Below are positions 8,585-62,763 of a stretch of 64,000 nt of DNA, in pieces (within the stretch, counting starts at the first letter, position 1; each line of letters starts with the position of its first letter). The DNA comes from a virus: UHGV virus genome UHGV-2031204. One strand, given 5' to 3'. Position numbers and translations under genes: made by a program. The notes below the pieces were generated by a model. That model saw nothing but the letters and a program-made list of their open reading frames with translations, had not been told where the DNA came from and made no database searches.

Positions 8585-9646
8585 TTAATTTTCTAATGCC
8601 TGATATAATGGTAAAATTAACTCGTGTCGATAGTAATTTCTAGCCGACCGTGTAAGTTTTTCCAATATCTTCGCATCTTCGAATCTGGCTATACGCACCA
8701 TTAAATTGGATTTGTATTTGCTCATACTCGAGTTGTCGAACTGTAAGCAGAACAACGCCCAATACCAGTTCACGATGTTTCGATGCCAACTACCCTGAAT
8801 GGTTGAGCCTGGGTCTTTAAAAAGGATGCGGTCTACCGCAGTGGTAGGGTGTGCCGGATCATCAAAGAACTGTGGAATGTGTGCCATGACCACACCAGGT
8901 AAAGGTTTACCTGCACGAAGTGCTTTACACACTTGCGTTGCGTGTTTAATTGAAAGTTCACGTAAAGGCGGTGTAGGGACAACACGAAGTGGTGTTTCGG
9001 GTTCGACTTCTTTACCTGTTGCGACAGCGCGATGAATATTTAAAAATGCGATATTCATGTAGCTGGGTAGCATACGGTAAATGATGTGTCGCTGCGCGTA
9101 AACTACACGGTTAATCGGTTCGGATTGCGTTCGGTAATATTGTTCTGCAAGAACGTATTGCCATAGCAGTGCAACCAGATTAATTTCAATAATACTGATG
9201 CCACGGGGTTTGCCGTTCCCGAGACTCCAGTTAAGATTCGTGTACTCGTGATAAAGATAAACTGCAGGTGTGTAGTCACGAAAAGACAGTTCAGGATCAA
9301 TAGGACGTGCGACGAGTGAAATAATCTCATCTTGCCCTTCGATAAAGATCCCATTGAAAACTTGACCATACTCCCCCACAGAAGTTAGGTGTAGTGCATT
9401 ACCGATATCGGAAAGTTTGCGTCGACATGCCCACTCGATCTCTTCGTAGCTGGGTTCACCCGCATATCCGATAGCCGCTAAGATTTTGAGTACCAGATGG
9501 CCTGAAACAACACGGGTTTGAATGGACTCTAAATAGTTGCGAATGCGCTGATTATTATTTTTTACGGCACTGACCAATTGTATAGCGGAAGGGTCTTCGA
9601 ATTTACCCTTTATGGCTGCTTGGTTTAACTCGGCTTGACTGAACAT
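8585..9646 (-). CDS. hypothetical protein (353 aa)
   Basis: Minus-strand ORF with AAGGAG upstream of its ATG; divergent from the 9855 gene. No motif recognised. Confidence 0.55.
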   Translation of the reverse strand: MFSQAELNQAAIKGKFEDPSAIQLVSAVKNNNQRIRNYLESIQTRVVSGHLVLKILAAIGYAGEPSYEEIEWACRRKLSDIGNALHLTSVGEYGQVFNGIFIEGQDEIISLVARPIDPELSFRDYTPAVYLYHEYTNLNWSLGNGKPRGISIIEINLVALLWQYVLAEQYYRTQSEPINRVVYAQRHIIYRMLPSYMNIAFLNIHRAVATGKEVEPETPLRVVPTPPLRELSIKHATQVCKALRAGKPLPGVVMAHIPQFFDDPAHPTTAVDRILFKDPGSTIQGSWHRNIVNWYWALFCLQFDNSSMSKYKSNLMVRIARFEDAKILEKLTRSARNYYRHELILPLYQALEN

Positions 9647-9700
9647 GACTTACTCCTTGGGGTTACACATAGGAAACGGTCACAGTCTCACTCACATTGA

Positions 9701-9731
9701 AAAATATCTGAGAAAGATATTATCTATGTGA
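9701..9731 (+). promoter_or_regulatory. conserved promoter-like motif, copy 2 (AAGATATTATCTATGTGA)
   Basis: One of two tandem copies, 80 bp apart, upstream of the strongly codon-optimised gene at 9855. Confidence 0.5.
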
Positions 9732-9780
9732 TGGTTCGGTAGTTAATCATTTTAAGCTATGTGTGTTTTACGTGTATTCT

Positions 9781-9811
9781 AAAATATCTTAGCTAGATAT
9801 TATCTACGTGA
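9781..9811 (+). promoter_or_regulatory. conserved promoter-like motif, copy 3 (TAGATATTATCTACGTGA)
   Basis: Core ends about 45 nt upstream of the ATG at 9855. Confidence 0.5.
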
Positions 9812-9854
9812 ACCAACACTACAATTGTATTAAACCTTATAAGGATTAAGTAAA

Positions 9855-11702
9855 ATGGCTAAAGAGTTTATTGACAATCAAAACGACGTTGTGACTGGTG
9901 CTGCTGGTTCCGCTGCAGATCCAATTCCGTCTTTCGGTGGCGCGGGAGCTGCTACTGTGGATAATACCAATGCGGCCAACGCTTTTGGTGGGATGTCTAA
10001 AAACATCTCTACTTTCGATAAAGCTTTCGGATACATGTCTTTCGTGTCCACTGCTTCTCAGTTCACCAGCCTGATTGAGAAGATGGCGGAGAAGAATACA
10101 TACCTGCGTAACTTCCGTTGGGGTGTTATTGACGGCATCAACTCTGAAATGGGTTCTGCTGCATACGTGGCTGGTCCGTCTGGCGATAACCATAACGAAT
10201 GGCTCTACGGCATCCTGTTCTTTGAACATGGCCAGTCCATCCGTTTCTACGAAATCAACGGTAAAGAAAACTACTACACCCTGGCGCAGCTGTTCAGCCA
10301 AGAAGGTGTGATGAACAACATCACTAACCAGATTGCAACTCAGCACAACCTGCCAAGCGTACAGTTCATGGTAATGAACTGCGTACCGGAACTGGGTAAA
10401 ACCATGAACGAAGAATGGGCTAACCAGCTCATGGGCCAGATTGCACTGGGTATCTTCGGTCGTCATTCCGGCTACCTGGGCTACCTGAAAATGACCCGTT
10501 CTGATCGCTTCACCGCGCAAGTCAGCGTAGTTGAAGAAGGTTCTGTAACTGATGTTAACGGTTCTGCACAACGTGCTGACCTGATGGTTGTGGTTGACCA
10601 TACTCGCACCGGCAACAACGATAATAACCCGACGCTGTTCTCTTCTGAACGCCTCCAGAATTATCCGAGCGTTGCAGGTGTTGGTTACATCAACCTCCGC
10701 CATAAAGGTAAACCTCAGACCCTGACTAACGGTACTCAGGACCTGCGTCAGCTGGAAGCCGAAGTGGTTGTTTCCCTGATGGATTCTCAGTCCTCTGGGG
10801 CAATGGCACCTATCGAGCGTCAGCTGATTGAACTGGCCGCGTTCGCACAAATCGCCACTATCGGTGGCTGGCGTGAACGTTTCATGCAGTCGCTGAACAA
10901 AACCGATCGCCGCTTCTCCCGCGTTCTGGAGTATGTAGAATGGGGCAGCGAAAAACCTGACCTGAGCAAAATCGACGGTAACCGTGAAGTTATCGAGAAA
11001 TGCCTGGACACCTTCGCTAACCCGACTGCGGCCCTGGTGGTGAACCATCGTGCAGGTAACGGTATCGGTGGTCTGTCTACTCTCCTGAGCGAAATCGGGA
11101 TGGGTAACACCAACGCACTGTACACCCTGTTCAATATCCTGGATAACATGGCCAGCAACGGCGCGACTAAGTTCAGCACTCGCTTCAAAGCACTGCTGGG
11201 CAATGTCACCAACTTCGAGTGCAAACACGTTGTTATTGCCGGTTGCCCGACCATCTCTGGCCAGTATTTCAGCAACAGCCAGAAACGCAGCTTCCAGGAT
11301 ATGGACTTGGTTTCCGCTCTGACTAAAGTGGGTGATAACCAACGCGATGCGATCGACTACATCAGTGCACAGTCCTACTCTCACCGCTATCTGAATGCGC
11401 GTGACCAGCGTCTGTACCTGCTGAAAATGGCTGCGTCCATGTTCGGTAGCAAACAGCCGCAGGTAACGGGTGAAGCGTCTGACCTGGCGATCAATCCGCT
11501 GTTTGGTAAAGCACTGGTGGAATACATTACTGAAAACTGCAACTTCCAGGTGAATGGTGTTACCGCAGCGAACAGCCTCACTCACTCTGTGTTTGTTAAC
11601 ACGGGTAATGAGAACTTCGCGCTGTCTGGTAGCGGTCCTAACGCATTTGGTAGCGATTTCGGTATGTCCTTCGCTGCAACTGACTGGCGTCCGACTTTCT
11701 AA
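9855..11702 (+). CDS. putative phage-nucleus shell protein (chimallin-like); alternatively another very abundant protein
   Basis: 615 aa with AAGGA upstream; strong bias to high-expression codons (CTG, CGT, GGT, AAC); Gly/Ala-rich N-terminal segment. Sits directly upstream of the RNAP beta-prime N gene, as phiKZ gp54/gp55 does (recalled, not searched). Size matches known chimallins (about 600-700 aa). Confidence 0.6.
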   Translation: MAKEFIDNQNDVVTGAAGSAADPIPSFGGAGAATVDNTNAANAFGGMSKNISTFDKAFGYMSFVSTASQFTSLIEKMAEKNTYLRNFRWGVIDGINSEMGSAAYVAGPSGDNHNEWLYGILFFEHGQSIRFYEINGKENYYTLAQLFSQEGVMNNITNQIATQHNLPSVQFMVMNCVPELGKTMNEEWANQLMGQIALGIFGRHSGYLGYLKMTRSDRFTAQVSVVEEGSVTDVNGSAQRADLMVVVDHTRTGNNDNNPTLFSSERLQNYPSVAGVGYINLRHKGKPQTLTNGTQDLRQLEAEVVVSLMDSQSSGAMAPIERQLIELAAFAQIATIGGWRERFMQSLNKTDRRFSRVLEYVEWGSEKPDLSKIDGNREVIEKCLDTFANPTAALVVNHRAGNGIGGLSTLLSEIGMGNTNALYTLFNILDNMASNGATKFSTRFKALLGNVTNFECKHVVIAGCPTISGQYFSNSQKRSFQDMDLVSALTKVGDNQRDAIDYISAQSYSHRYLNARDQRLYLLKMAASMFGSKQPQVTGEASDLAINPLFGKALVEYITENCNFQVNGVTAANSLTHSVFVNTGNENFALSGSGPNAFGSDFGMSFAATDWRPTF

Positions 11703-11731
11703 TAAGTTGGTAAGTAGTAAGCAGTAGTTGA

Positions 11732-11772
11732 GGGACAGGGGAAAACCCCCTGTCCCTTCCCTCTCTTTTTTT
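11732..11772 (+). terminator. rho-independent terminator
   Basis: Stem GGGACAGGGG / CCCCTGTCCC with loop aaaa, then a T-rich run. Confidence 0.65.
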
Positions 11773-11786
11773 GTTGAGGATTCGGC

Positions 11787-13394
11787 GTGGAACATAAACT
11801 AGAATATTACGGGATTTCGGGGCGACTAATTAGTCACGACAAGATGTTACGTGACTGTATACAAGAAGCGGAGGAAAAAGGCTACAAACCACCGATTATT
11901 ATCAATGACGTTGCTGCAACGATGGATACCATCGAAGCGTCGGAGATGATTAACCAAATACTCCAAAACCGAATCGTTGATGAAACACTCAACTCGGCTC
12001 CTATTTGCAGTCTGACCTGCGAATCACCTATTACCCATCGTTATAATCTTGGGCTACGTTGCCCACATTGCGGACATGTTGTTTCTGAACATCGGATTAC
12101 GTCCGATGTCTGGTTACGCGCCCCCGATGAGATGGGTAACTTTATCAATCCACGTTTTTGGTCTCTCTTTAATGCCTTCTTTGGCTCTAAGCTGAAAAAA
12201 TTTAATCGTAACAAAGTGACGGTAGAGCGCGGGTCTGATTTACTGCTGTGGCTAATCGATCCGTACTACCATCCAGAAAAGGACGAAGGAACACGTGCTC
12301 GCGTGGTGAAAAGAATACTCGGCGAACATGGCTTCGAACGGGGAATTCGAAACTTTATCGACCACCATCGAACCGTCTTTAATATCCTTACGTCCCCGGA
12401 AGCTTGGAAGGAGATTTATCCGCCAACGAAAAATAACCGTTATGAGAGTGAGCGCGTACGCTTAGAATGGCGTGAGTTCTTTCAGGAACAATCGTTCTCA
12501 TTCTTTCCAAGACACCTTCCGATTATTTCATCAAAACTGATCGTTACGGAGGAACGTCGACAAGGTATTTTTATCGATCCGGTTTATACCAGCGCTATCG
12601 ACGCAGTAAAAAATGTGGCGTTGTTGTACACGAATGCACGTCGTATCGAACCACGATTTATTATTCGTCGCGCAATCAAAGCGAATCGACAGCTTGCGTA
12701 TTTCTATATTGACCATCGTCAGGAAGTGATGGAAGGTAAACCTGGGTTCTATCGGGCAAAACTCGGGTCAACACACGTACCGTGGGGCGGACGTGTGACT
12801 ATCTCTCCTATCTCTGAACCTCACGATGCGTTGAAAGTTATTGCGCCTTGGCGTTGGTTGGTTCCGTTGGCGAGTGTTCACATCGAGAACAAGTTAGGTC
12901 GTCGTGATTATACACCTCGACAATGTGAGCGCATTATTGCATTTGCGGCAATGCAGTATGTACCGCTGGTACATGAAATTATTAATGAGTTGATTAAAGA
13001 ATCCCCCGGCGGATTCGGCTTAATGTTGGAAGTTCTGCGTAACCCAACATTGGTTCAACTTTCTATTCAGACATTGTTCATCTCAGCGGTACTGACAGAT
13101 GTAACACAATGTTCTCTGCGTATTTCTGATCGTGTCATCAAAGCGCCTAACGCTGATTTCGATGGCGACCAGTTACAATGCAGATTGGCAATCGACCAGA
13201 TTGAAATGGAACTGGGCATGGCTTATCGCCCAGACAACGGGTTTATGTCAAGCACGAATGTGGACGAGGTTTCGAGTTGTATGATTCTCCATAACGAGAA
13301 TATCAGCAACATAAACAGTTTCTTCCAGGATACTGAAGAGGACTTGGAAGCCGGTATCGCGCTTGACTCTGAATTATTAAAATTGGCGGGGTAA
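11787..13394 (+). CDS. multisubunit RNA polymerase beta-prime-like subunit, N-terminal fragment
   Basis: 535 aa; contains NADFDGDQ (the beta-prime catalytic Mg-binding motif) and an N-terminal C-x-x-C ... CPHC zinc-finger-like cluster; GTG start after GAGGA. Confidence 0.8.
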   Translation: MEHKLEYYGISGRLISHDKMLRDCIQEAEEKGYKPPIIINDVAATMDTIEASEMINQILQNRIVDETLNSAPICSLTCESPITHRYNLGLRCPHCGHVVSEHRITSDVWLRAPDEMGNFINPRFWSLFNAFFGSKLKKFNRNKVTVERGSDLLLWLIDPYYHPEKDEGTRARVVKRILGEHGFERGIRNFIDHHRTVFNILTSPEAWKEIYPPTKNNRYESERVRLEWREFFQEQSFSFFPRHLPIISSKLIVTEERRQGIFIDPVYTSAIDAVKNVALLYTNARRIEPRFIIRRAIKANRQLAYFYIDHRQEVMEGKPGFYRAKLGSTHVPWGGRVTISPISEPHDALKVIAPWRWLVPLASVHIENKLGRRDYTPRQCERIIAFAAMQYVPLVHEIINELIKESPGGFGLMLEVLRNPTLVQLSIQTLFISAVLTDVTQCSLRISDRVIKAPNADFDGDQLQCRLAIDQIEMELGMAYRPDNGFMSSTNVDEVSSCMILHNENISNINSFFQDTEEDLEAGIALDSELLKLAG

Positions 13395-16252: not shown

Positions 16253-17085
16253 CCCCAATCAGTGTTGATCGCACGTTTGGGTTTTATCAAATGTCAATTG
16301 CTACATCGTTGGCTTTTGAAGGGCTTCTCCATGAAGGAGAATATGCCGATTGGAAGGGTCCAGTCCCTATCCACAAGTATCAGGATATTTACCTGAATCT
16401 ACGGACGTTGTTCCGTAACGCGTTTTACGCGTTTGAAACGAATCGTGAACGATTAACACCTGAAGTGTTGCTGGCATCGATTGAAGAAGATATTGCTTCT
16501 ATTAACGCTACCGCGAAAGCGGTAGCGCCTTCGGTGCTATGTGTCCCCTATATCTGTACGTATAAAAGTGCGAACAGAATCTTCCCCGAAGCAGCGTTCC
16601 GTACGATTGCGGGAGGGCAGGAAAAGATGACACCTAACCAGCACCACTTTAATGCGTTAGAACATGATACGTTAAAGTTATACGGTGAAAAATACCCTGA
16701 GCAATTCAAAAGCTTTGATGTGTTTCCGAAAGGGCAGCATGACACATTGATTTTAACCCATTACCCCGCCGATCTGTTGGCCTACAAAGATTTCCCGCTG
16801 TTGAATCTGTTAGAATCACACACGGGCAAGATTAAAGGTCGGTTAGAATGGTACACGAAGCTTTACGGTAAACCCGAACAGATCCCGTTTAACAAGGCGT
16901 TTCTAACGCTATTTGGCGATGGGTATATGTTCTCCCCACTTGACAGAAAGGTTCGTAAGGTGGTGTTGAATACCGCCGAGAAATACCACTGGCGACAAGA
17001 TACGACCATGGATCGTATTTACAGTTGCTTGAAGTTGGTTAACGAGCCCTTTGTCATTGAGTTCCTTCGTAGATTGTCTCGCTAA
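16249..17085 (+). CDS. hypothetical protein (278 aa)
   Basis: ATGA overlap with the upstream gene. Confidence 0.55.
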   Translation: MTPISVDRTFGFYQMSIATSLAFEGLLHEGEYADWKGPVPIHKYQDIYLNLRTLFRNAFYAFETNRERLTPEVLLASIEEDIASINATAKAVAPSVLCVPYICTYKSANRIFPEAAFRTIAGGQEKMTPNQHHFNALEHDTLKLYGEKYPEQFKSFDVFPKGQHDTLILTHYPADLLAYKDFPLLNLLESHTGKIKGRLEWYTKLYGKPEQIPFNKAFLTLFGDGYMFSPLDRKVRKVVLNTAEKYHWRQDTTMDRIYSCLKLVNEPFVIEFLRRLSR

Positions 17086-17143
17086 TTTTACAGATCGTTT
17101 TGTTAGTTTGAGCACTCCGAAAATGTAAAAATAGGATAAGTAA

Positions 17144-17788
17144 ATGGTCAATAAAAACTTCCTTAAAGAGAAATGGCTTTACCCGCAGACTGAGCCGGAT
17201 CAACAGGGCCGTACTCGTAAACTGGGCATTGAATTGAACGAGTTCAATGGTGATGTGGAACTGATGAAATTCCACTATTCCTTTGGTAAAGGCGAAGGTC
17301 TTTATTTCACCGCAGGCTATACTGTCTGTGTTGATATCTTTGAAACCCTGCGTACGGTGATGCAGAAACCCGAAAAAGTTGTTTTCAAATGGGAAGATAC
17401 AAAAGGTAAGAAGGCACCGGTTAGCTTACACGTAGGTCGTGATGAAAATCTGACACCGTTCTTTGCACTGAGCGGTGAGATCCCAGGGGTTGGTGCGCGT
17501 CAGAAGAAATTCTATTTCACCTATCCGAAAGGTTATCGTGTTTTCCGTAATGGACAACTGGTCTCCGATCTGGAACTGGCAGAGCGTCAGCTACGCGCGT
17601 TCCTGAAAAATGCAGATGTATTCCTGGAAGATTTCCGTGACAACTACAAACCGCGTGAGTTTAATAATGCGGCTGGTGGTAGTTACGGTCGCGGCGGTTA
17701 CAATAACGGCGGCAACGGCGGCGGTTATAACAACCAATCTGCCGCAAAAGCCCCAACACCAACTAACGATTTTGACGATATTATCTAA
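17144..17788 (+). CDS. putative ssDNA-binding-like protein with Gly/Asn-rich linker and acidic C-terminal tip
   Basis: 214 aa; strongly codon-optimised; C-terminus GGSYGRGGYNNGGNGGGYNN...NDFDDII resembles the disordered linker and acidic tip of SSB proteins (E. coli SSB ends DFDDDIPF). Confidence 0.4.
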   Translation: MVNKNFLKEKWLYPQTEPDQQGRTRKLGIELNEFNGDVELMKFHYSFGKGEGLYFTAGYTVCVDIFETLRTVMQKPEKVVFKWEDTKGKKAPVSLHVGRDENLTPFFALSGEIPGVGARQKKFYFTYPKGYRVFRNGQLVSDLELAERQLRAFLKNADVFLEDFRDNYKPREFNNAAGGSYGRGGYNNGGNGGGYNNQSAAKAPTPTNDFDDII

Positions 17789-17808
17789 ATAATGTAAAAC
17801 TATAACAT

Positions 17809-17836
17809 AGCCCCAGGATATCCTGGGGCTCTTTAT
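17809..17836 (+). terminator. terminator-like hairpin
   Basis: Stem AGCCCCAGGA / CCTGGGGCT with loop tat, then a weak T-tract. Confidence 0.45.
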
Positions 17837-17860
17837 CGTGTATGTGTGTAGAATACAGTC

Positions 17861-17895
17861 GAAGTTATCTGAGATAGATTTTATCTTAGTGGACG
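17861..17895 (+). promoter_or_regulatory. conserved promoter-like motif, copy 4 (TAGATTTTATCTTAGTGG)
   Basis: Lies inside the 5' end of track ORF 17838..19550, which argues for the later start at 17922. Confidence 0.45.
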
Positions 17896-17921
17896 ACTAT
17901 GTTATTCCTGGAGATTTTAAA

Positions 17922-19550
17922 ATGCGCATTGAAAAGAATCGTGACCGTTTAGTGATAAAGTACGGCGAAAAAGAGGTCGCGTTTAATGGTTTCCGAAATG
18001 GACGTAAAGACGTGAATGTGCCAGACGTACGCGATAGTTTCGGACAGATCGTAACGCACGATAAAATTATGTTCATGGAAATCGAGCGTTATTGGTCAAC
18101 TTTAACACCCGAAGAGAAAAGCGAACTGTTTTCAGTTTACGAAGAATTAGAGTTGTTAGCTAATGAACCCCCAGAAGTTATTCGTGAACACGTCCCCACG
18201 CTCGTCGCGAGAATTGCTAAATTTCATCACGCAGATAGATTCCGCCAGCTTTATCCACACGGTTCGGTGTGGATTCCTCAAAACGTCCACGAAACGTACG
18301 AAGAGATGTCGTCGAATTATCCAAAAGAGATGACGTATATCGTACAAGATTATTACGAATTGGTGATTTTGTCTTTGATGACAAAACCGTTTATTCCCGT
18401 ATTCTTGATTTTGGACGCTTTTCCTGCAACACGTGCTTCTGTTGAGTCGAAGCGCAAAAGTGTTTATAACCTGACCTACTGCATGGAACTGTTGTCCGAT
18501 ACCGAGATTGCTACACTGCCAGCCATTACAAAGTTGCGTGAGTTTTTAGTGTCGGTGATTTCGAAAGTTCAGGACGGGGGGAGTAAAGGACCCAATACTG
18601 CAAACCTTACCGTCCTGGCATCTATCTGTGGCTACGGTACGGATATGGTAGAGGAATACATCATAGCGTTCGCTGTTATCCGATTAATTGCGATGAAGTT
18701 AATCGGTGCCGAACTACCACCAGGTACGATGGTTGAAAACAACATCGTGGCGGGGATGTATTTCAATATTCGACAAGAAATTGAAACGGGCTTCGCGGGA
18801 AAAATTTCCGGTCAAAACGTGATGCTAAAAGCGAATCCTGAGAAAATCATGTTCAACGGCGAGAAGGGGAAAACTTCGTCGATTGACCTGGTTCAAGCTC
18901 GGACTAAAGCACCAATGAAGGAATTCGTTCGTACTCAAGAATTCTTTAATGACTATCGTCGTGCGGTGCGTGCTTTGAATCTCGATATTGCTCCCGCTGA
19001 TGTGAAAGTGTTGATAGATTCCATCAACATTAACCATCAATATCCTTTCTACGAACTCTACGAATGGTTGGTGGCGGCAGTGATGCACCGATTTGCAGAT
19101 CGTCGTACATACAAGGAAATCGACGCAGAAGCGTTTAAGAATGCGATGGGTATATCCCAAGCCGTTTACATCTATTACGGAATGGCTGAGATTGCACAGT
19201 TGTTAAGTTGTGAAATGATCCGGGCACCGCTAAATGGCGGGTATCCCATCGAGCCAATCGATAATGAGATTAAAATAAAAACGGATAGATATTATCCACA
19301 AGCATACCGTAAGCATCGTAATACTTACGAACAATCAACATTGAAGGATTCTCTCAGCTTGTTGGTTCGTGAACATATCGCGCCGTTCAACTTCAATCTC
19401 AGGGCAACACCGGAAGCAGCCAGAATGTTACGGTGTGGGACAGTGATGTTGGACTATTCACCTCATCCGCGACTTCAGAACATGTTAGCAGAATTTCTGT
19501 TAATTCAAAACAGAAAGAAATGCGAAGAAGTAGCATGGTTTAATCAATAA
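17922..19550 (+). CDS. hypothetical protein (542 aa)
   Basis: Track ORF trimmed to the ATG at 17922 (GGAG 8 nt upstream), placing the promoter motif and terminator outside the gene. Confidence 0.55.
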   Translation: MRIEKNRDRLVIKYGEKEVAFNGFRNGRKDVNVPDVRDSFGQIVTHDKIMFMEIERYWSTLTPEEKSELFSVYEELELLANEPPEVIREHVPTLVARIAKFHHADRFRQLYPHGSVWIPQNVHETYEEMSSNYPKEMTYIVQDYYELVILSLMTKPFIPVFLILDAFPATRASVESKRKSVYNLTYCMELLSDTEIATLPAITKLREFLVSVISKVQDGGSKGPNTANLTVLASICGYGTDMVEEYIIAFAVIRLIAMKLIGAELPPGTMVENNIVAGMYFNIRQEIETGFAGKISGQNVMLKANPEKIMFNGEKGKTSSIDLVQARTKAPMKEFVRTQEFFNDYRRAVRALNLDIAPADVKVLIDSININHQYPFYELYEWLVAAVMHRFADRRTYKEIDAEAFKNAMGISQAVYIYYGMAEIAQLLSCEMIRAPLNGGYPIEPIDNEIKIKTDRYYPQAYRKHRNTYEQSTLKDSLSLLVREHIAPFNFNLRATPEAARMLRCGTVMLDYSPHPRLQNMLAEFLLIQNRKKCEEVAWFNQ

Positions 19551-19580: not shown

Positions 19581-21287
19581 ATGGCAATGAAACTTTTGAA
19601 ACTACAAATGTATCCAGTGTACGAAATCCCAGAGCAGATTCGTCGTCGCATTGGGTTCTTTGAATCGCAGCACGCTTTGGATGAGTTAGTGGATGTGGTT
19701 GCAGAACACGGTGATAAAGCAACAGGTTCTCGGGCTTATCAAGAAGCCTTGGGGCAGATTGTGGGTTTCGACAACACCCCAACTGGCATTGAACGTCCAT
19801 TCATTAACGTGAGTGATAACGAATCGCAACCAATCCATTTTGCGTATAATTCTCGCGATACTGGTGTGTATAACTTCGTGGCGATTATTGTTTCGAACTC
19901 GTTAAATGACACACGGACTCAAGAAACACGTTATGTTGTTTCCGGGTATACGTCCCAGGCAGAACGATCCATGTTTAATCACCTGCCGGATGACATGGTT
20001 CTGTATATCAACGAAATATACGGGTTACAATGTACGTATATCACCGATGCGTTTGGTGGACGTCGTATCAACCCGGATTCCTTCCGTTTGATAGACAACT
20101 ATGTGTTGTCCAAGACATTAACCGCAGACAGTTATGTAGAGCACACCATTGACGTTATTTCTACCGCGAAAGCAGCTGATATGGTGCGTAAAGTGGTGAA
20201 AGCTGGTGAGCAGATTGAGCTGGATAACAACACTGTTATCTCTGCTAATTGCCAGCGTGCACCACAGTTGATGTCTAGTCAATTAACACGACCAGAATCT
20301 TTCGTGACAGCTATCTCCAATTCCTTCATTAATACCATGGGGATTGAAACGGAGTTGAGTGCAGTGGACAGTTTCTTCGCAGGAGATCATTCTCTTGGGG
20401 TAGAATCTGAACTTAGCCAGATCGGGGTGATGCGTAATTTCAATAGTTACGAATTGGTGAAGGCTTTTAGAACCGCCATATCCAACGCCACGTCCGATAT
20501 GACTAGCGGTTGGAACGTTGCGAACCGTGCAGCATTCAAACTGTGCGACCTGCGTAACGCGGTGATTAATCCCGAAGACGTAGATGCTGCAATTGCGCAC
20601 TCACTGGCTGTCGCAGCCCGTCGCGGTTTTGGTGAAATTGAACGCACCGATGATTGGGTAGGACGTAACAACTATTCTACTCAGGGTTCGTTGGTGGCAT
20701 TTGATTTAGCCATGTTACTGGGGCCTGTGGTCACTCGTAACCTTATCGGCGAAGTGACTTTCTTCTACGATAACCGTATGGCGGATATTGCAACACCTCC
20801 TCTGCTGCAAGTGTCAAAACACAACGTTGGGGCATTAACTGAAGACGGATTACCGGATGTGTTAGCACGTCGCTTCTTAAGTGACTTACAAGGCGTATTC
20901 TTGCAAGTGACTAAACACAACCGTATTCGTTGTAAGATGACCGTAACGTGTATCGTTGGGGTGGTTTCACGTATTGAAATCGAAATCGATGGTGAGCTGC
21001 CTGAGTATTATACTCATGCGTCGTTCATGAAAGCACGTCTGCATTGTGGTACAACGACTGACCTTCAGTACACGAACCAGTTAGCTGCAGAAACAGCGCA
21101 GCTGATGAACAAAGTGGAAGAAGGGTACCAAGAATTCAACCGTGGTCAGAACCGTTCGAATATCCTGTCGAATATTCCAACTGCCCCTGTGTCTGCACCT
21201 ACGAGCCTGGGTAGCTTCGGTAGCTTTGGTGGTGGCGATATGTCAACCTCTGCGCCAGTGTCTGGCTTTGGTGCATTCGGCGAGTAA
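19581..21287 (+). CDS. hypothetical protein with FG-motif C-terminal tail
   Basis: 568 aa; AAGGAG upstream; C-terminus ...SLGSFGSFGGGDMSTSAPVSGFGAFGE. Confidence 0.6.
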   Translation: MAMKLLKLQMYPVYEIPEQIRRRIGFFESQHALDELVDVVAEHGDKATGSRAYQEALGQIVGFDNTPTGIERPFINVSDNESQPIHFAYNSRDTGVYNFVAIIVSNSLNDTRTQETRYVVSGYTSQAERSMFNHLPDDMVLYINEIYGLQCTYITDAFGGRRINPDSFRLIDNYVLSKTLTADSYVEHTIDVISTAKAADMVRKVVKAGEQIELDNNTVISANCQRAPQLMSSQLTRPESFVTAISNSFINTMGIETELSAVDSFFAGDHSLGVESELSQIGVMRNFNSYELVKAFRTAISNATSDMTSGWNVANRAAFKLCDLRNAVINPEDVDAAIAHSLAVAARRGFGEIERTDDWVGRNNYSTQGSLVAFDLAMLLGPVVTRNLIGEVTFFYDNRMADIATPPLLQVSKHNVGALTEDGLPDVLARRFLSDLQGVFLQVTKHNRIRCKMTVTCIVGVVSRIEIEIDGELPEYYTHASFMKARLHCGTTTDLQYTNQLAAETAQLMNKVEEGYQEFNRGQNRSNILSNIPTAPVSAPTSLGSFGSFGGGDMSTSAPVSGFGAFGE

Positions 21288-21309: not shown

Positions 21310-22689
21310 ATGAAAATTATTGAATTCTACAAATCGTTTCTTAAATCACAAGGATTCGATTTTGAAAACGATTTACTCACTCGTGACGGTGGTGAACCGG
21401 CAGAGTTTACGTATAACAAAGTGAAGCGCCGTTTGGCGCTTCCTACCCCAGCGATGATTAAGCGTGGCATGGAAGACGACGATGGTCGTGAATGTCAAGC
21501 ATTTCATCCACTGTGTGAATCGGTACTGGCAGGTGAATCAGGGACAATTCGTTTCCTGAAGAAATCCATTAATGCGAACCTGTTCATTCGTTCCTTTGCA
21601 TTAATCGACGCGATTCTGGAAACGGGGGCAAGTGGTAAAGCAGTACGTTCAGCTTCCTACAAGAAGTTCTTAACAGAACAGATTTGCGAAGGGATGAAAG
21701 ATCCGACGTTCGATGAGCGTTTGGTAAAATCCTGGGAAGCGGTTAAGGCGTTCGTTTACGCACAATTGGAAAAAGATAAAAAGCACAAGATCACCCAGCT
21801 TTTTATCGCATCTGATTTAGTTATCGATGGTGTGAAGTTTAACCGCGTAGCTAATTATCGGAATATGTTCGAAGAAGAATCGTTAGATGGTACCGCAATG
21901 TACTTCTCTGCGAAGCTTCAACGTAAACAAGACAAAATCATTATCCACCGTTTACTGACCACCGTGTTCGGTTGGTATCCGAGCGTAACGGGGTCTAATG
22001 ATTCGCGTCCGTATTTCGGTTGCTTAGCGCGTGGTTGGGCGCAGTACGTTGTGAATTATAACAACGTCGTTAAGGGATTGCGCGACCACACTTCTTTACG
22101 TCCGTTGGAAGATGAATGGATTTCTCAGCTGGACAATATGGATATTTACGATAACGTCATTCAGACCTTACCGTATAACACCGGCCCACGTTCTGACAGC
22201 CCTGAACGTGATACCACGGCGCATGACTTCCGTATTGATCGTGCACAGGCACCGCAGCAGATCCCACAAAAACGTGCATCGGATGCAGATAAAGCAGATA
22301 AGTCCGATCCGATGGAATTCTTCCGCGCTCGTGAACGTAACATGGCCGCGCATAGTCCTTATGGGAATTTGACGCCAGCGATGCAACGTTACGCTGAGCA
22401 GCACGGAACAACTAACCCCGCCAACGGTATGGTAAGTCGAATTTCTGTTGTGGATGCGTTTGGTGGTGAGCGCAAGGTTTCACCTTTCGGTGGTCAGAGT
22501 AACTTCGGTGTAGGGAATACTGGAGGTTCTTTGGCAAGCACCTTTGGCGGAGGGAATAATTCTTTCGGCGGGAATGTAGGGGGGACTAGCGCATTTAGCA
22601 CAAGTTCAGCATTTGCATCGAATAGCAGTTTTGGCGGGCAGCCGCAAAGCAGCTTCGGCGGATTTGCAACTTCGGCATTTACGCGTTAA
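21310..22689 (+). CDS. hypothetical protein with long FG-repeat low-complexity C-terminal tail
   Basis: 459 aa; the last ~80 aa carry at least 8 FG dipeptides (AFGG, PFGG, NFGV, TFGG, SFGG x3, GFAT) spaced by S/T/N/G/Q-rich linkers. Confidence 0.6.
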   Translation: MKIIEFYKSFLKSQGFDFENDLLTRDGGEPAEFTYNKVKRRLALPTPAMIKRGMEDDDGRECQAFHPLCESVLAGESGTIRFLKKSINANLFIRSFALIDAILETGASGKAVRSASYKKFLTEQICEGMKDPTFDERLVKSWEAVKAFVYAQLEKDKKHKITQLFIASDLVIDGVKFNRVANYRNMFEEESLDGTAMYFSAKLQRKQDKIIIHRLLTTVFGWYPSVTGSNDSRPYFGCLARGWAQYVVNYNNVVKGLRDHTSLRPLEDEWISQLDNMDIYDNVIQTLPYNTGPRSDSPERDTTAHDFRIDRAQAPQQIPQKRASDADKADKSDPMEFFRARERNMAAHSPYGNLTPAMQRYAEQHGTTNPANGMVSRISVVDAFGGERKVSPFGGQSNFGVGNTGGSLASTFGGGNNSFGGNVGGTSAFSTSSAFASNSSFGGQPQSSFGGFATSAFTR

Positions 22690-23060: not shown

Positions 23061-23093
23061 AAAATAAGTGAGATAGATATTATCCTACTGAAT
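23061..23093 (+). promoter_or_regulatory. conserved promoter-like motif, copy 5 (TAGATATTATCCTACTGA)
   Basis: About 35 nt upstream of the RNAP beta-like gene at 23114. Confidence 0.45.
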
Positions 23094-23113: not shown

Positions 23114-25351
23114 ATGAAAACGCCAGTAGAGCTAATGAGCAGTGTGGCTGACCGTGAGATTAATATCACCGAAGTATCAGGTGCAAGGGCATCGATGGTA
23201 GGCAACCATATGAAGTCTGCGGTCCCTATCGACAATCCTGAACCATCGCCACATTTTACAGGGGCAGATATAAACTACCACGATTTTCTGTTCAATGACG
23301 TTGTAGAAGATCCCGGTAGCATCTGCCACTATATGACCAAAGACGGTCGTCAGCGCCGCGCGACGTTTACACGTTATGGTCGTCGTGGGGATTCTAAAGC
23401 GTTGGAACATGCTATCTTCTTCCGCCGTGCAGAAATGAAGGGCGGTAAAACCATGATAGATGTGCTGGAGATTAACTTCTATACTAACCACGACAACATC
23501 TTCTCATCTGAGAAACGTGAGTCGATGAAACTGCGTAGTATTTTACGTGGCGAAACCGATCAGTTGGAAAAGGATGAAATCCTTACAACGATGTCGTGTA
23601 TGGTGGAAGGCGAGTACGCCGATAGCGTCGTGTTACCAACCGTTACGATTTCGCATCCTGATATCATCGAGGATTCTTACACCATCTCTGAGTACGCCGC
23701 CCAAAAACTCCACGGTTATGGTTTGAAAATCGTTGAAAAGACGCTACGTGAAGACGAGTTTTTACTGGATACTTACGGTTATATCGATCCGAACGGTAAT
23801 CGCGTCCCACGGTATTTCCCGGATGTGGGGGAGGCTATTCGTGACGATGGGTTGGTCATTGCATCGCGTCGTTTCGATGAGCTTTACGGTGCAATTGATG
23901 CGTCGCTTGGGGAAACCCAACACGTCTCTCCGTTCTTTGATAGTTGCGAATATGTGGATGCCGATCCCGTCCATTATAAAGCACGTCTTGCAGGCGACAA
24001 AGAACTGATGGAACGTAGCGGTACACGTATCGTCGATATCCAGGTGTGGCGTGATGAAACGTCTTGCGCGAATGGTGCTAACAATATTTCTTGTACCGAA
24101 GAGAACAAACGAGAACTGGATAAATACGCATTAGCATTGAAAGACTATTACAATGCCATCGTACGATTCTATTTCTCAATGTCCCGTGACAAAAATATTA
24201 TCTGGTCGCCGAAAGCGTGCGTGTTGTTGGAAAAAGCGTTCGCTTCTGAAACATACGAGGTCTATCACGAGTTTCGTGAAGAGATACGCGTGGTGATTGA
24301 TGAAGCAATTCGTCGTGGTGAATACGGTAAAGAAAATGTCAGTCAGCAGATTCTTTCTAAGTTGACCTCGCCAGTACAACGTGGACTCAGCGATCCCATC
24401 AACACGTATACCATTCGTATTGCTGTTCGTTATCCGATCCCGGTAACGGTGTCGTCTAAGATTACCGACCGCTCGGGTACGAAAGGGATTGTTGGGCGTG
24501 TATTGCCCGTTGAGCAGATGCCGATTAACGAATTCGGTGAACGTGTTCACGTTTTACGTTCGATGAACGCTGTAATTCGTCGCTCGACTTATGCAGCATT
24601 ATTCCACATGTATTGGTCAGCTGCGTCTGAACAGTTGAAAATGCGTCTTAAACCATTGCTGGATGAAGGACGTATCAGCGAGAGCTGGGAAATCCTGATG
24701 GATTATCTATCACGCTATAATCCAGAATGGGCCAATACACTACAGGCAACGCATCCTACGGAGGATTTACAACGCGAACTTTTCAAAGAGATTTACGATT
24801 TTACAATCCGTATTTACTTACCACATGAACTTGACGACACGCCAGTCGATATCAGTGAACGGTTGGGTGAATTTAAACCGCGTAAATCCAAACTCCTGAT
24901 TACTAATTTCGATGGTAAACAGGAATGGACAAAAAATGAGTTTTACGTAGGTGGTGTGGAAACATTACGTCTGGATAAAACAGGTCGTGAGTTTTCCAGC
25001 ATCTCGTCAATGTATCTGAATTATCTGGGTACGATAGATGCGTCTAACCAAGGCCGTGGTTCGTATCCGATAAACTATAAAACGCTAAAATGGGCTGGTC
25101 CTTCGGAAGAACGACTGTTAGCGGGTTATGGTCCAGGTAACTACGAAGAAGTTCACGACAGGGCAAATAACCCTGCGGTGCATCGTGAGATTTTAGTAGG
25201 GCTTTATCGATCTCAAACCCCGTCTAATCCGGGTCCACTGGTAGACCGGAATAAATTCCCGTTAGGGGATTCACAGATTGACAGGATGATGAAAAACATC
25301 CACAGCTGTGAAGGGTTTGAATTGGTGAAAATGAAAAGGGGCGATGAATAA
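23114..25351 (+). CDS. multisubunit RNA polymerase beta-like subunit (C-terminal region)
   Basis: 745 aa; DRSGTKGIVGRVLPVEQMP...RSMN parallels E. coli beta [20 protein letters not shown]...SRMN; AAGGAG upstream. Confidence 0.6.
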   Translation: MKTPVELMSSVADREINITEVSGARASMVGNHMKSAVPIDNPEPSPHFTGADINYHDFLFNDVVEDPGSICHYMTKDGRQRRATFTRYGRRGDSKALEHAIFFRRAEMKGGKTMIDVLEINFYTNHDNIFSSEKRESMKLRSILRGETDQLEKDEILTTMSCMVEGEYADSVVLPTVTISHPDIIEDSYTISEYAAQKLHGYGLKIVEKTLREDEFLLDTYGYIDPNGNRVPRYFPDVGEAIRDDGLVIASRRFDELYGAIDASLGETQHVSPFFDSCEYVDADPVHYKARLAGDKELMERSGTRIVDIQVWRDETSCANGANNISCTEENKRELDKYALALKDYYNAIVRFYFSMSRDKNIIWSPKACVLLEKAFASETYEVYHEFREEIRVVIDEAIRRGEYGKENVSQQILSKLTSPVQRGLSDPINTYTIRIAVRYPIPVTVSSKITDRSGTKGIVGRVLPVEQMPINEFGERVHVLRSMNAVIRRSTYAALFHMYWSAASEQLKMRLKPLLDEGRISESWEILMDYLSRYNPEWANTLQATHPTEDLQRELFKEIYDFTIRIYLPHELDDTPVDISERLGEFKPRKSKLLITNFDGKQEWTKNEFYVGGVETLRLDKTGREFSSISSMYLNYLGTIDASNQGRGSYPINYKTLKWAGPSEERLLAGYGPGNYEEVHDRANNPAVHREILVGLYRSQTPSNPGPLVDRNKFPLGDSQIDRMMKNIHSCEGFELVKMKRGDE

Positions 25352-27450
25352 TGAAGGGCACTCCAGTTCACGTGCGTGATCTGTGTAAACTGAACTCGGA
25401 TCAGGTGTGGCTATTGCGCGGCAGATATGAAGTGACGTTCGATGACGGGATAACCTTAAACATGTCAGGACGCCACATTAAAATCAGTTGGCCTTATTGG
25501 GGGCTAACACGATTTTATCCGCAGATCCCAATCAGTTCGCAAATGGCGTATAAACATGGCGACACCGCTACAGATGACGCACATCTGAAGTTTATGTCAT
25601 TGGCAGCTGTGGCAGCACGTAAAGCGGGTGTGGATTTAGCAGATACCCGCTATTTATTGCAGCAGCACGTCTATGCGGATGCGTTTAACTTATCGGTGAA
25701 AAATCTGTTGTCGTATTGTGTCACGATTGACTACGATACGATGATGGAAATTTACCAACACCGAAATTTTACGCAGATTCATCAGTGGGCACAAATGTAT
25801 CCTACTGGGTACGACGAAGAAGGTCGGGATATGATCGAAGAAGCGTATCTTCTTATCGAAGATATCTTCAAAGACCCACAACTTCGTTTAAACCCTGTGG
25901 TGATGTCGGTCTTGGATAAAACCATCAAAATGAACCAGGTTCTCCAGGCGTATATACGCGGGAAAACGTCAGAGATTGATTCTCGCGTTTATTCTAACCA
26001 GGTATGGGAAGGTTTCTTTACGGGCCTACATTCTGTAATTAGCCGTCTGAAAGAAGCGGGAGCGACGTCACGTTCTCACCTGTATAATACCGATAAAATC
26101 GCCGATGCGGAATATGCGTCACGTAAGCTACAGTTAGCAGCCAACGTGTTAATGTATTTCGAATACGACGATTGCGGTACGCATCATGTTCACCGCCACA
26201 CGTTTACAGAAAGTAAACTGGAGCGTAAGAAGTACGATGCGATGGTAGGGATGCGTTATCGTTTTGAAGGCGTGGGAGGCCCGTGGCTACGATTCGAGAA
26301 AGGGGAGTTTGAGAAAGTCTTAGGTAAACCTATTGAGTTTCGTACCGCGATGTGCTGTAAGGGGATGGCACGTCAAAGCATTTGTGCAACGTGCATGGGT
26401 GATTTGATTTATAACCTTTCGCCGGGAACGTCCCCAGGTCACTTGGCTTCAACCTCGATATCTGAAAAGGGTACGCAGGGGATTCTCTCAACGAAGCACT
26501 TGGACTTCTTACGTTATCTGCTGAATCTGGTACTGACTCCGAGAATGCGGGATTATCTTGGGGAGTATAAACACAACTCCGTAAAAGGGTTGAGTTTACG
26601 GGAGAAACCGCAGTACGGTAATTGGGATGAATACCAACTCGTTATTTCTGATGAAGTCTATTCTGAAATCAGCCAAATCGCGTATCATGACGATTTGGAA
26701 GTGATCGACGAAACGGCATTGCCGGAGATTAACGAACTGACCTTTTTGCGGTTGGATGAAGCTGGGAATGTGTTGGCTGAAGATCCCATTGACGTCCGTA
26801 TGGGGGTTTGTGGTAACTTCTCGAAAGCCTTCTTGCATTTCTTCCTGAAACAGCGCGATAACATTACCTTCCCGTCGAAGAAGCTGGTACGGATTCCCCT
26901 GAAAGGATGGAAACCGAGTTGGCCGATACTAATTTATACGAATCGGTCTGAATCTATGGCGGAGTTTGTAGCAGGGTTAGAATTGAAACTTCGTTCGGTT
27001 GCGTCTGATAAATCGGATACTTTCGAACAGTTCTCTGATGACTCAATGCGTTTGAGCAAGAAGTCGGGTAAGGTAAAACCAACGACTCTGGTTCAGATGC
27101 GCGGTGCTACGGAGAAACAATGTACGCACGCGTTATTTGATGTGTTTAAATATATCCAACGTAAGCTCGGTGGTATTCCGATGACACACATCGCGATTAT
27201 GCTGGCGATATCACGCGTTGAATCACCGACCAATCCTTTCCCGGCGGTTGGGTTTGATAGTGAAGATGCTGATGTGATGGATGGCAAACGTTTCGAGGAT
27301 CACAATACGTTGATTGCGATGCGTTCAGCTGTACCGATGTTGTTATTCGAAGGCCAACAGAAAAACCTGGACAACGTGCGTTTCTACACGTCGCGTAAAC
27401 GTCCGGCGTCGTTATACGACAATACGGTGGCCGCGACTATCATTGAGTAA
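25351..27450 (+). CDS. possible RNA polymerase beta-prime-like subunit, C-terminal part
   Basis: 699 aa; TAATG overlap with the beta-like gene; Cys cluster CCKG...CATC and GTQGILSTKHLD weakly resembling the beta-prime bridge-helix motif SGYLTRRLVD. Weak evidence. Confidence 0.4.
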   Translation: MKGTPVHVRDLCKLNSDQVWLLRGRYEVTFDDGITLNMSGRHIKISWPYWGLTRFYPQIPISSQMAYKHGDTATDDAHLKFMSLAAVAARKAGVDLADTRYLLQQHVYADAFNLSVKNLLSYCVTIDYDTMMEIYQHRNFTQIHQWAQMYPTGYDEEGRDMIEEAYLLIEDIFKDPQLRLNPVVMSVLDKTIKMNQVLQAYIRGKTSEIDSRVYSNQVWEGFFTGLHSVISRLKEAGATSRSHLYNTDKIADAEYASRKLQLAANVLMYFEYDDCGTHHVHRHTFTESKLERKKYDAMVGMRYRFEGVGGPWLRFEKGEFEKVLGKPIEFRTAMCCKGMARQSICATCMGDLIYNLSPGTSPGHLASTSISEKGTQGILSTKHLDFLRYLLNLVLTPRMRDYLGEYKHNSVKGLSLREKPQYGNWDEYQLVISDEVYSEISQIAYHDDLEVIDETALPEINELTFLRLDEAGNVLAEDPIDVRMGVCGNFSKAFLHFFLKQRDNITFPSKKLVRIPLKGWKPSWPILIYTNRSESMAEFVAGLELKLRSVASDKSDTFEQFSDDSMRLSKKSGKVKPTTLVQMRGATEKQCTHALFDVFKYIQRKLGGIPMTHIAIMLAISRVESPTNPFPAVGFDSEDADVMDGKRFEDHNTLIAMRSAVPMLLFEGQQKNLDNVRFYTSRKRPASLYDNTVAATIIE

Positions 27451-32569: not shown

Positions 32570-33424
32570 ATGATTGACATTTATACCGATTACGCCGCCG
32601 TTCTTACCGTCAATCGTGCGGAAGAACGTGCTGCGCCTTTCCTGGACTTAGTAACGCTGTGCATGGATTACGGTTACGATGTTGCGTTAAGCGATGTGTA
32701 TTGGCAACCGTCGTCTGATCCTGCCGACGAAACAGTAAGACTGGAAGGGATTATTGTAAAATGCGCCGTGGCGTTAGGCAACCGTTTAGGCGTTGCTTTA
32801 AACCCACAAGAAGTTTTCCGTAAACCGAAAGAGACCGTACGTATTCTAGATGGTATTACGTCTAAATTCGAAGAGTTCGAAGACACTGATACGTTATACG
32901 GTCTCGTGATGTCTGGAGAAACGCCAGAGTTTATCCTGGAAAGTATCTGCCGTTACGTATACGGTGATGACAATATCCATTTTGAAGATTTGGTCATTCG
33001 TGTTTCACCCCGTGTAATGACGGTGATGCGCAACTATCTTTCAGCTATGGTTGTGGATGAACAGCTTGCTGTAGGTAACGATGCGCGTCTGACGCGTATT
33101 GCAGAATACTTGCGTCTTTATCCGCAAAACCCTTCTGCGTTCGTATTCCTAAACCTACCTGAAGATCCCGATTTGACGGTTGTCCAACAATCGTTAGTGT
33201 TTGACGTCGAAGATTACAGCGAAACAGAATTACTCGAGATGTATACGGTAGGGCTTTCGATTATCGATAACGATGACTTCGATGACGCGTATGCCGATCT
33301 TTCGACGAACTTAGAGAAACTTAATAATGATGGGTTACAACCCATTACTGTTTTACAACCTGCATTAAAAAGCCTACGGCTGATTTATCAGGTTGAGGAG
33401 GCAGAGCACGATGACGAGGTTTGA
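32570..33424 (+). CDS. hypothetical protein (about 284 aa)
   Basis: Track ORF trimmed to the ATG at 32570 (AAAGG upstream). Confidence 0.55.
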   Translation: MIDIYTDYAAVLTVNRAEERAAPFLDLVTLCMDYGYDVALSDVYWQPSSDPADETVRLEGIIVKCAVALGNRLGVALNPQEVFRKPKETVRILDGITSKFEEFEDTDTLYGLVMSGETPEFILESICRYVYGDDNIHFEDLVIRVSPRVMTVMRNYLSAMVVDEQLAVGNDARLTRIAEYLRLYPQNPSAFVFLNLPEDPDLTVVQQSLVFDVEDYSETELLEMYTVGLSIIDNDDFDDAYADLSTNLEKLNNDGLQPITVLQPALKSLRLIYQVEEAEHDDEV

Positions 33425-48883: not shown

Positions 48884-48965
48884 TCATTTAGATTCGTAGT
48901 TCCGTACAGTTCTTGAAATAAATCATCAGGGGAACAATACGTTCCCCTTAGAGGAAAAGCTTAAA

Positions 48966-50300: not shown

Positions 50301-50336
50301 AAATAATTTTCAGATATATATTACCTAGGTGAGATT
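50301..50336 (+). promoter_or_regulatory. conserved promoter-like motif, copy 6 (TTCAGATATATATTACCTAGGTGAGA)
   Basis: 26-nt stretch identical to the copy at 58563..58588; about 50 nt upstream of the ATG at 50385. Confidence 0.5.
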
Positions 50337-50384
50337 ACACAGTAATCTCTTTACGACTTGTTTATTACGTTTAGGAGAAATATC

Positions 50385-58401: not shown

Positions 58402-58560
58402 AAACTTCCCGTTACCTCTATGGGTAACGGGAATACCTTTTATTTATTCCTAAACGACACGCAGAAGTCATTTAACCGTTAAGACGACTAATTACCCTTT
58501 AAAAAGAAAATTGCGTCAGAATGCGTTTTAGAGCGTTCTAGAGGGTATATGGATTCAAAA

Positions 58561-58590
58561 AGATTTCAGATATATATTACCTAGGTGAGA
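58561..58590 (+). promoter_or_regulatory. conserved promoter-like motif, copy 7 (TTCAGATATATATTACCTAGGTGAGA)
   Basis: Identical over 26 nt to the copy at 50311..50336; about 50 nt upstream of the small gene at 58637. Confidence 0.5.
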
Positions 58591-58636
58591 GTTTACGTAA
58601 TACTCATTTATCGAATACCTAATTAGGAGTTATATC

Positions 58637-62751: not shown

Positions 62752-62763
62752 GGTATTAAACAA

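Follow-up and report, generated by a model that had tools for sequence, protein, structure and literature searches.

What is encoded at positions 9855-13394 of the DNA examined here, and what kind of phage does this locus belong to? The DNA is a single strand of 64,000 nucleotides (nt) of the virus genome UHGV-2031204 (hereafter the window), and the locus consists of an open reading frame (ORF) at 9855-11702 on the plus strand, which starts with ATG and codes for 615 amino acids, and of a second gene directly downstream, at 11787-13394. An earlier note had described the first product as a chimallin-like protein, the second as the N-terminal part of an RNA polymerase (RNAP) beta' subunit, and the virus, should this hold, as a nucleus-forming phage. 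We conclude, with a probability of about 0.93, that 9855-11702 is the chimallin gene (chmA) of an uncultured jumbo phage of the SPN3US/Asesino type with a genome of ~222 kb, and that its neighbor encodes a subunit of the non-virion RNAP (nvRNAP). This conclusion is based on the computed fold of the protein, its orthology, synteny, codon bias, and the conservation of upstream motifs and of a terminator.

Identity of the 615-residue protein

The strongest evidence comes from structure prediction. A first AlphaFold2 model, built from 14 sequences (predicted template modeling score [pTM] 0.68, mean predicted local distance difference test score [pLDDT] 62), gave nine significant matches in a Foldseek search of the PDB (E-values 1e-16 to 8e-20), all of them to chimallin/PhuN structures of 201phi2-1, Goslar, and phiPA3, the next match having an E-value of 0.17. 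With a second model, derived from 25 sequences (pLDDT 78.6, pTM 0.80), the same nine matches were recovered with E-values of 1e-18 to 2e-22 and template modeling (TM) scores of up to 0.72. The predicted structure comprises a compact two-domain core, approximately residues 64-573, made of an alpha/beta N-domain and a GNAT-like C-domain, the arrangement that has been described for chimallins (PMC9365700). The significant structural matches include no capsid (HK97-like) or sheath fold, and no structural-protein family of PHROG or Pfam matches the sequence. The fold search thus contradicts the proposal that the protein is an abundant virion component (capsid, sheath, or internal head protein); this proposal, which we hold to be the least probable of those considered, could draw on the strong codon bias of the gene, which recurs in the genes for internal head proteins (47612-50231), and on the annotation of phiKZ gp52, the counterpart of the neighboring minus-strand gene, as a head protein.

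Orthology points to the same identity. By tblastn, 62 phage records match the protein, all at less than 60% identity and labeled "hypothetical protein" almost throughout (one row carries a domain of unknown function label); they belong to SPN3US-like Salmonella, Escherichia, and Proteus phages and to Erwinia and Cronobacter jumbo phages. The top match, at 52.7% identity, is gp039 of Erwinia phage Asesino, whose gene (gp39, at 16493-18349) contains the matching segment; in a fusion with green fluorescent protein (GFP), this protein encircles the DNA of the phage (PMC11724907). In Salmonella phage SPN3US, the ortholog is SPN3US_0022, with ~51% identity over 92% of the length. Laughlin et al. identified SPN3US gp244 as a diverged chimallin with 10% identity to 201phi2-1 gp105, and linked it to a square lattice of 13.5 nm that is visible in lysates (PMC9365700), and Enustun et al. 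list SPN3US ChmA as YP_009153316.1 (PMC10643120). We excluded the possibility that this gp244 is a gene separate from SPN3US_0022: because RefSeq numbers the genome in the direction opposite to GenBank and the coordinates are identical (NC_027402 15768-17621), SPN3US_0022, RefSeq ACQ60_gp244, and YP_009153316.1 are one and the same. A 2025 preprint (10.1101/2024.12.31.630880) cites instead YP_009153538 as the SPN3US chimallin. That accession is a 240-residue virion structural protein encoded beside the head protease (GenBank 0244, RefSeq gp022; NC_027402 220023-220745), so that the literature evidently already holds one accession mix-up for this protein.

The window phage is nevertheless distinct from both relatives. 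Asesino, an Erskinevirus with a genome of 246 kb, differs from it in host and genus, the contigs of the window phage being ~222 kb long; only about half of the residues of the Asesino ChmA are identical to those of the window protein. SPN3US is a Seoulvirus of 240 kb. The distance to the canonical chimallins, namely 201phi2-1 gp105 (7SQQ-S, 8IGG), the Goslar protein (7SQT-V), phiPA3 PhuN/gp53 (8FNE), and phiKZ gp54, is much greater, with 14-16% identity in structural alignments, and pairwise or single-round profile searches miss it.

Several results weigh against a chimallin identity. Pfam gave only a noise match, and although the protein falls into PHROG 8316 (E-value 1e-232), this family carries no function label. 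Neither a phmmer search of the PDB (no match) nor a 14-sequence profile (noise only, E-values above 0.5) retrieved any solved structure, BLASTP against phiKZ gp54 gave an E-value above 1, and hhalign assigned to the same pair a probability of 0.5%, which is not significant. In addition, the structures that match chimallins are predictions, the first of them with a mean pLDDT of just 62, and some drift is possible in the iterated profile described next, because it took in weak matches, down to an E-value of 3e-4. This second-iteration profile (A2, 25 sequences) matches phiPA3 PhuN with an E-value of 9e-16 and the 201phi2-1 chimallin with one of 2e-4; both matches are collinear and share the motifs R-A-D, E-x-x-L-x-A-L, R-x-G, and D-x-D. 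Judged from this profile, sequence homology to the established chimallins is detectable despite the failure of the direct searches. Of the homology and structure comparisons that had been proposed for this protein, plain BLASTP and phmmer against chimallins came back empty, while the predicted structure and the iterated profile did match them; the best structural matches are exclusively chimallins, and the closest characterized orthologs are Asesino gp039 and SPN3US ChmA, which supports the identification made in the earlier note. The family itself is small, with 24 representatives among 1.84 billion proteins. A phmmer search of the PDB with its most distant member (P0037) found no match, and a precomputed Pfam tag, PF25677, borne by three homologs (P0004, P0010, and P0012), was not reproduced by hmmscan, even with E-values of up to 1.

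A protein with a chimallin fold could still be something other than the main shell component. It might be a paralog whose function is secondary (a lesser component of the shell, a factor associated with it, or a decoy), with the major shell gene located elsewhere in the other ~160 kb of the genome, a scenario to which the far divergence of the family from canonical chimallins and the coverage of the analysis (64 kb of ~222 kb) lend some weight. Against it, the Asesino ortholog itself forms the ring, two studies name the SPN3US ortholog as chimallin/ChmA (PMC9365700; PMC10643120), the gene keeps its position beside that of the nvRNAP beta' N-terminal subunit and bears the expression signals of a bulk protein, and a tblastn search with phiKZ gp54 found no second canonical chimallin in SPN3US- or Asesino-type genomes among the matches listed. 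We therefore regard the paralog scenario as very unlikely and retain the 615-residue protein as ChmA.

The segments on both sides of the core may correspond to the flexible tails of chimallins. Residues 1-63 and 574-615 are modeled with low confidence (pLDDT below 50 for 1-63 and 574-601, ~55 for 602-615) and predicted to be disordered. Conservation is 0.40 for residues 1-45, 0.63-0.71 in the core, and 0.73 for residues 573-597, and a conserved FD-AFG motif lies at residues 54-59. In chimallins, N-terminal (NTS) and C-terminal (CTS1/2) segments dock on neighboring protomers and so knit the lattice, and the corresponding N-terminal tail of the 201phi2-1 protein (residues 1-47) can be deleted without a significant drop in shell incorporation. 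In the models, the low-confidence tails of the 615-residue protein may mirror the NTS and CTS.

One feature of the core sets this clade apart. The Gly-rich loop HRAGNGIGGLS, at residues 398-408 (11046-11078 of the window), is invariant in the clade and is located, according to the secondary structure of the model, at a strand-to-helix junction of the GNAT-like domain, whereas canonical chimallins have at this place R-x-G only (RFGDN in PhuN, RMGET in 201phi2-1). GNAT enzymes hold the pyrophosphate of acetyl-CoA at such a strand-to-helix junction (GNAT motif A). The loop might accommodate a nucleotide or another small ligand, or form the lining of a transport pore, in a clade that is reported to be without PhuZ and is met with as a long-term, "plasmid-like" resident of Enterobacterales isolates. 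On the basis of its conservation, the modeled secondary structure, and the resemblance to motif A, one may imagine that SPN3US/Asesino-type chimallins form a functionally distinct branch of shell proteins and are not merely diverged copies; we consider this improbable. Taken further, the same resemblance would make the protein an active GNAT-type acyltransferase or toxin-like enzyme without structural function; the nine significant structural matches are all chimallins, and this enzyme hypothesis appears to us extremely doubtful.

Codon usage and expression signals of chmA

The earlier note had called the gene strongly codon-optimized, and this was borne out. Its effective number of codons (ENC) is 36.4, as against ~46-58 in most other genes of the window, and its G+C content is 0.51, as against ~0.45 for the window. 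CTG accounts for 85% of Leu codons and CGT/CGC for 100% of Arg codons, while TTA, CTA, TCA, AGA, AGG, and ATA are never used; the favored codons are those preferred by highly expressed enterobacterial genes. A codon bias at least as strong is found only in the internal head protein genes and in an uncharacterized region, 62740-63798, with which the window nearly closes on its right. Because the sense gene is devoid of TTA, CTA, and TCA codons, the antisense frame is free of stops, and an ORF of 649 codons on the minus strand (9846-11795) covers the whole of chmA and exceeds it in length. We rejected this ORF as a gene, the homology being entirely on the plus strand. A naive gene caller that selects the longest ORF would prefer it to the real chmA.

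Upstream of the gene, the two copies of a promoter-like motif that had been reported were found again, as direct repeats of 36 nt on the plus strand that are 83% identical and 80 nt apart: the distal copy, ATTGAAAAATATCTGAGAAAGATATTATCTATGTGA, lies at 9696-9731 and contains an exact 16-nt core, and the proximal copy, ATTCTAAAATATCTTAGCTAGATATTATCTACGTGA, lies at 9776-9811 and ends ~44 nt before the ATG. Exact occurrences of this core, AGATATTATCTAYGTG, are limited to these two copies in the whole window. Allowing as many as three mismatches brings the number of sites to seven, all on the plus strand, for 1.08 expected, a count reached in none of 100 shuffles. Similarly, the 8-mer GATATTAT occurs seven times, five of them in intergenic DNA, which makes up only ~12% of the window. 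The core is also present upstream of other genes, at 1916, 17778, 19289, and 23077, again always on the plus strand; the sites at 17778 and 23077 immediately precede the genes for a gp68-like RNAP subunit and for an RNAP beta subunit. Comparison of the window with SPN3US and Asesino shows both GATATTAT cores unchanged at equivalent positions amid flanks that have diverged. The proximal copy of SPN3US is more degenerate (AGATATTATCTCTGCG).

Jumbo phages that encode RNAPs each possess a phage-specific AT-rich element of ~10 nt near position -10 of their early genes (PMC7598289), and nvRNAP subunits are early products (PMC8287921). Two genes for nvRNAP subunits in the window carry the chmA-type motif upstream. 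The core GATATTATC is thus likely to be an early promoter element, which by analogy would be read by the virion RNAP. In phiKZ, gp54 is likewise transcribed from two start sites, of which one is early and the other middle (PMC8244752); because both copies upstream of chmA are of one type, the promoter class is a guess, which counts as a further point against our interpretation. A host-type promoter was rejected, as a sigma-70 promoter scan gave only two matches, both on the minus strand and fewer than in shuffles, and none on the plus strand upstream of chmA.

The other signals concern translation and termination. A Shine-Dalgarno-like AAGGA is located at 9841-9845 (plus strand), 9 nt before the ATG, and TAAGGA is kept in SPN3US and Asesino. 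Between chmA and the next gene, at 11730-11773 (plus strand), lies an intrinsic terminator composed of a G+C-rich hairpin of 12 bp, GAGGGACAGGGG-AAAAC-CCCCTGTCCCTT, followed by CCCTCTCTTTTTTT; in SPN3US and Asesino, hairpin and T-run are preserved through compensatory changes in the stem. Asesino has in common with the window the adjacency of the two genes, both GATATTAT cores ahead of chmA, and the intergenic terminator. Taken together, the tandem promoters, the Shine-Dalgarno sequence, the optimal codons, and the strong terminator are what a protein made in bulk would call for, and they would uncouple the output of chmA from that of the enzyme gene behind it. To judge by such proxies (ENC of 36.4, tandem motifs, and terminator), chmA may be expressed early and very abundantly.

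Together with what is known of related phages, these signals allow a mechanism to be proposed, in which expression timing, the polymerase that reads the motif, lattice assembly, and localization are taken by homology from 201phi2-1, Goslar, phiPA3, and Asesino. Early in infection, the two tandem copies of the phage-specific AT-rich promoter element would drive very strong transcription of chmA, the injected virion RNAP being the probable enzyme, and the good Shine-Dalgarno sequence and host-optimal codons would ensure efficient translation. The strong terminator would end the chmA transcript, so that much less of the downstream enzyme is made. ChmA would then self-assemble into a lattice, its flexible N- and C-terminal segments docking on neighboring protomers, and the resulting shell would enclose the replicating phage DNA and exclude host nucleases; self-assembly as a square lattice round the DNA is suggested by the orthologs, that is, by the ring of GFP-tagged Asesino protein and the SPN3US lattice. 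Inside the shell, middle and late genes would be transcribed by the nvRNAP, comprising the beta' N-terminal subunit (11787-13394), which would carry the catalytic Mg site, and the gp68-, beta-, and gp74-like subunits, whose genes lie 4-14 kb farther downstream.

Two further conserved or repeated elements were observed in intergenic DNA. A block at 9647-9690 (CACATAGGAA...GGTCACAGTC), between the divergent minus-strand gene (8585-9646) and the chmA repeats, is conserved with SPN3US and Asesino and may serve to regulate the minus-strand gene. Another motif family, TTTCAGATATATATTACCTAGGTGAGA, has two near-identical intergenic copies on the plus strand: that at 50303-50342 precedes the gene at 50358, and that at 58559-58598 precedes the gene at 58835. 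This family is related to the GATATTATC element, yet distinct from it, and may represent another promoter class.

The nvRNAP beta' gene, its intron site, and the gene neighborhood

The gene behind chmA (11787-13394, plus strand) starts with GTG and encodes 535 residues. The NADFDGD motif and the zinc finger that had been noted in its product are both present: the catalytic motif, within KAPNADFDGDQ, occupies residues 455-461 (nt 13149-13169), and the Cys4 cluster has the form C74-x3-C78-x13-C92-x2-C95. By phmmer, the best solved relative is PHIKZ055 (7OGP_A, E-value 1.5e-38), followed by the AR9 nvRNAP beta' protein, and the protein matches phrog_2987 with an E-value of 2e-163. Homology to phiKZ gp55 (7OGP chain A) extends over residues 70-499, with conservation of the Cys cluster and of DFDGD, and identity to Asesino gp040 (nvRNAP beta'1), which localizes inside the phage nucleus (PMC11724907), reaches 68%. 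On these sequence grounds, the gene encodes the beta' N-terminal subunit of the nvRNAP (phiKZ gp55/Asesino gp040 type), as the earlier note had supposed. By orthology with Asesino gp040, the subunit would be active in the nucleus and absent from the virion.

The sequence encoding the catalytic motif is also an intron site. In a contig from a sister strain (L006; ENA ERZ28566275 scaffold_3), the RNAP gene is interrupted exactly between A456 and D457 of NADFDGD by an insertion of 350 nt, which is a complete group I intron (Rfam RF00028, L006:6291-6602, 60.5 bits, E-value 8.9e-14) and leaves no room for a homing endonuclease gene. Alignment with L006 and with another contig, L008, places the corresponding site of the window at 13154/13155 on the plus strand (AACGCT/GATTTC, NA/DFDGD); it is empty in both the window and L008. 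Two other contigs (L007 and L009) probably carry the same intron, given their matching pattern of a 499-residue and an 83-residue gene call. In phiKZ, unlike the uninterrupted gene of the window, gp55 is split (gp55/gp56/gp56.1; L004:11165-12545) by an intron with an HNH gene, gp56, between the N and the A of NADFDGD; the insertion site of the sister strains lies 3 nt farther downstream. As the two sites are 3 nt apart and the introns differ, two introns target the same catalytic codons. Asesino gp040 (L005:5313-6911) has NGDFDGD where the window phage and phiKZ have NADFDGD.

The arrangement of the two genes is embedded in a larger conserved block. The order DNA polymerase, minus-strand gene, chmA, nvRNAP beta' N-terminal subunit, SbcD is the same in the window, phiKZ, SPN3US, and Asesino, and the order of genes in the window matches that of phiKZ gp50-gp80 (gp50, gp52, gp54, gp55 ... 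gp65), with corresponding blocks in SPN3US (gp18-gp27) and Asesino (gp35-gp44). The adjacency of phiKZ gp54 and gp55 given in the earlier note is correct.

Further RNAP subunits are encoded in this block, all of those located by strand on the plus strand. The gene at 17838-19550 encodes a fifth nvRNAP subunit of the phiKZ gp68 type (phmmer match to PHIKZ068, 7OGP_B, E-value 4.6e-10; phrog_3209). At 23114-25351, preceded by the GATATTATC motif at 23077, lies the gene of an RNAP beta-like subunit (phrog_3295 "RNA polymerase beta subunit," E-value 2e-251), which by synteny only occupies the position of phiKZ gp71-73. It is followed at 25351-27450 by that of the nvRNAP beta' C-terminal subunit, similar to phiKZ gp74 (PHIKZ074, 7OGP_D, E-value 8.7e-32). 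A gp80-like subunit of the virion RNAP is encoded at 33393-34712 (E-value 3e-48). No gp123-like nvRNAP subunit was seen in the window, the DNA outside it not having been searched for one. Other products of the window are SbcD, helicases, and a divergent family-B DNA polymerase that is split.

The genome, judged from the contigs that carry the identical ChmA, exceeds 200 kb and encodes ChmA and two multisubunit RNAPs, the features by which Chimalliviridae are recognized. The presence of ChmA, of nvRNAP subunits and a virion-RNAP subunit, and of a phiKZ-like gene order supports the claim that this is a nucleus-forming phage. No PhuZ or other tubulin was found among the 35 window proteins scanned, which come from less than a third of the genome; the Asesino clade has been reported to be without PhuZ, which is not a defining feature of Chimalliviridae.

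Some neighbors of the RNAP genes have counterparts in related phages. The product of the gene at 17144-17788 (plus strand), whose codon usage is biased (ENC 42.5), is 65% identical to SPN3US_0029, which is listed as a homolog of the nuclear-shell-associated phiPA3 gp61 (PMC10643120). The genes at 19581-21287 and 21310-22689 (plus strand) are at the positions of gp63 and gp64 homologs, by synteny only.

Distribution, host, and other features

In this protein, the closest phage record is only ~53% identical. A protein identical to the 615-residue ChmA is indexed in 397 blocks of the assembly collection; it is carried by metagenomic contigs of 222-225 kb and by one contig of an NCBI assembly. Because of this occurrence of the identical protein on such contigs in many metagenomes, we regard the window as part of a new SPN3US/Asesino-type chimallivirus, at roughly new-genus distance within the known SPN3US/Asesino branch of chimallins. 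Family, fold, gene neighborhood, and function have all been published already, so that conceptually the finding holds nothing new.

Relatives were also found among replicons of ~222 kb filed as plasmids, in a human Escherichia coli isolate (NZ_CP173450.1, 135036-139987) and in Enterobacter ludwigii from a gull (NZ_CP134650.1, 99820-103958). They have ~77% nucleotide identity over the region, and their genes in the matching stretch bear the label "hypothetical protein." These replicons are probably jumbo phage genomes that persist in the isolates, which fits the persistence reported for Seoulvirus-like jumbo phages. Among the species-representative genomes of GTDB, which were scanned as well, no relative was confirmed. 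Judging from the related replicons and from codon usage, the host is probably a species of Enterobacterales.

With this identification, a widespread phage of ~222 kb, so far uncultured, joins the nucleus-forming chimalliviruses. Such a status predicts resistance to defenses that target DNA, such as restriction enzymes and most CRISPR types, and this bears on the ecology of gut Enterobacterales phages and on phage therapy. Because this branch of chimallins is missed by Pfam, by the function labels of PHROG, and by one-round sequence searches, its annotation requires structure-based methods or iterated profiles.

Lastly, two tandem paralogs of an internal head protein (phrog_2497) are encoded on the plus strand at 47612-48883 and 48966-50231. 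The first has an ENC of 31.5, the strongest codon bias computed in the window; the ENC of 36.8 available for the second is that of its antisense shadow ORF. As over chmA, antisense shadow ORFs cover these head protein genes, here of 395 and 436 residues.

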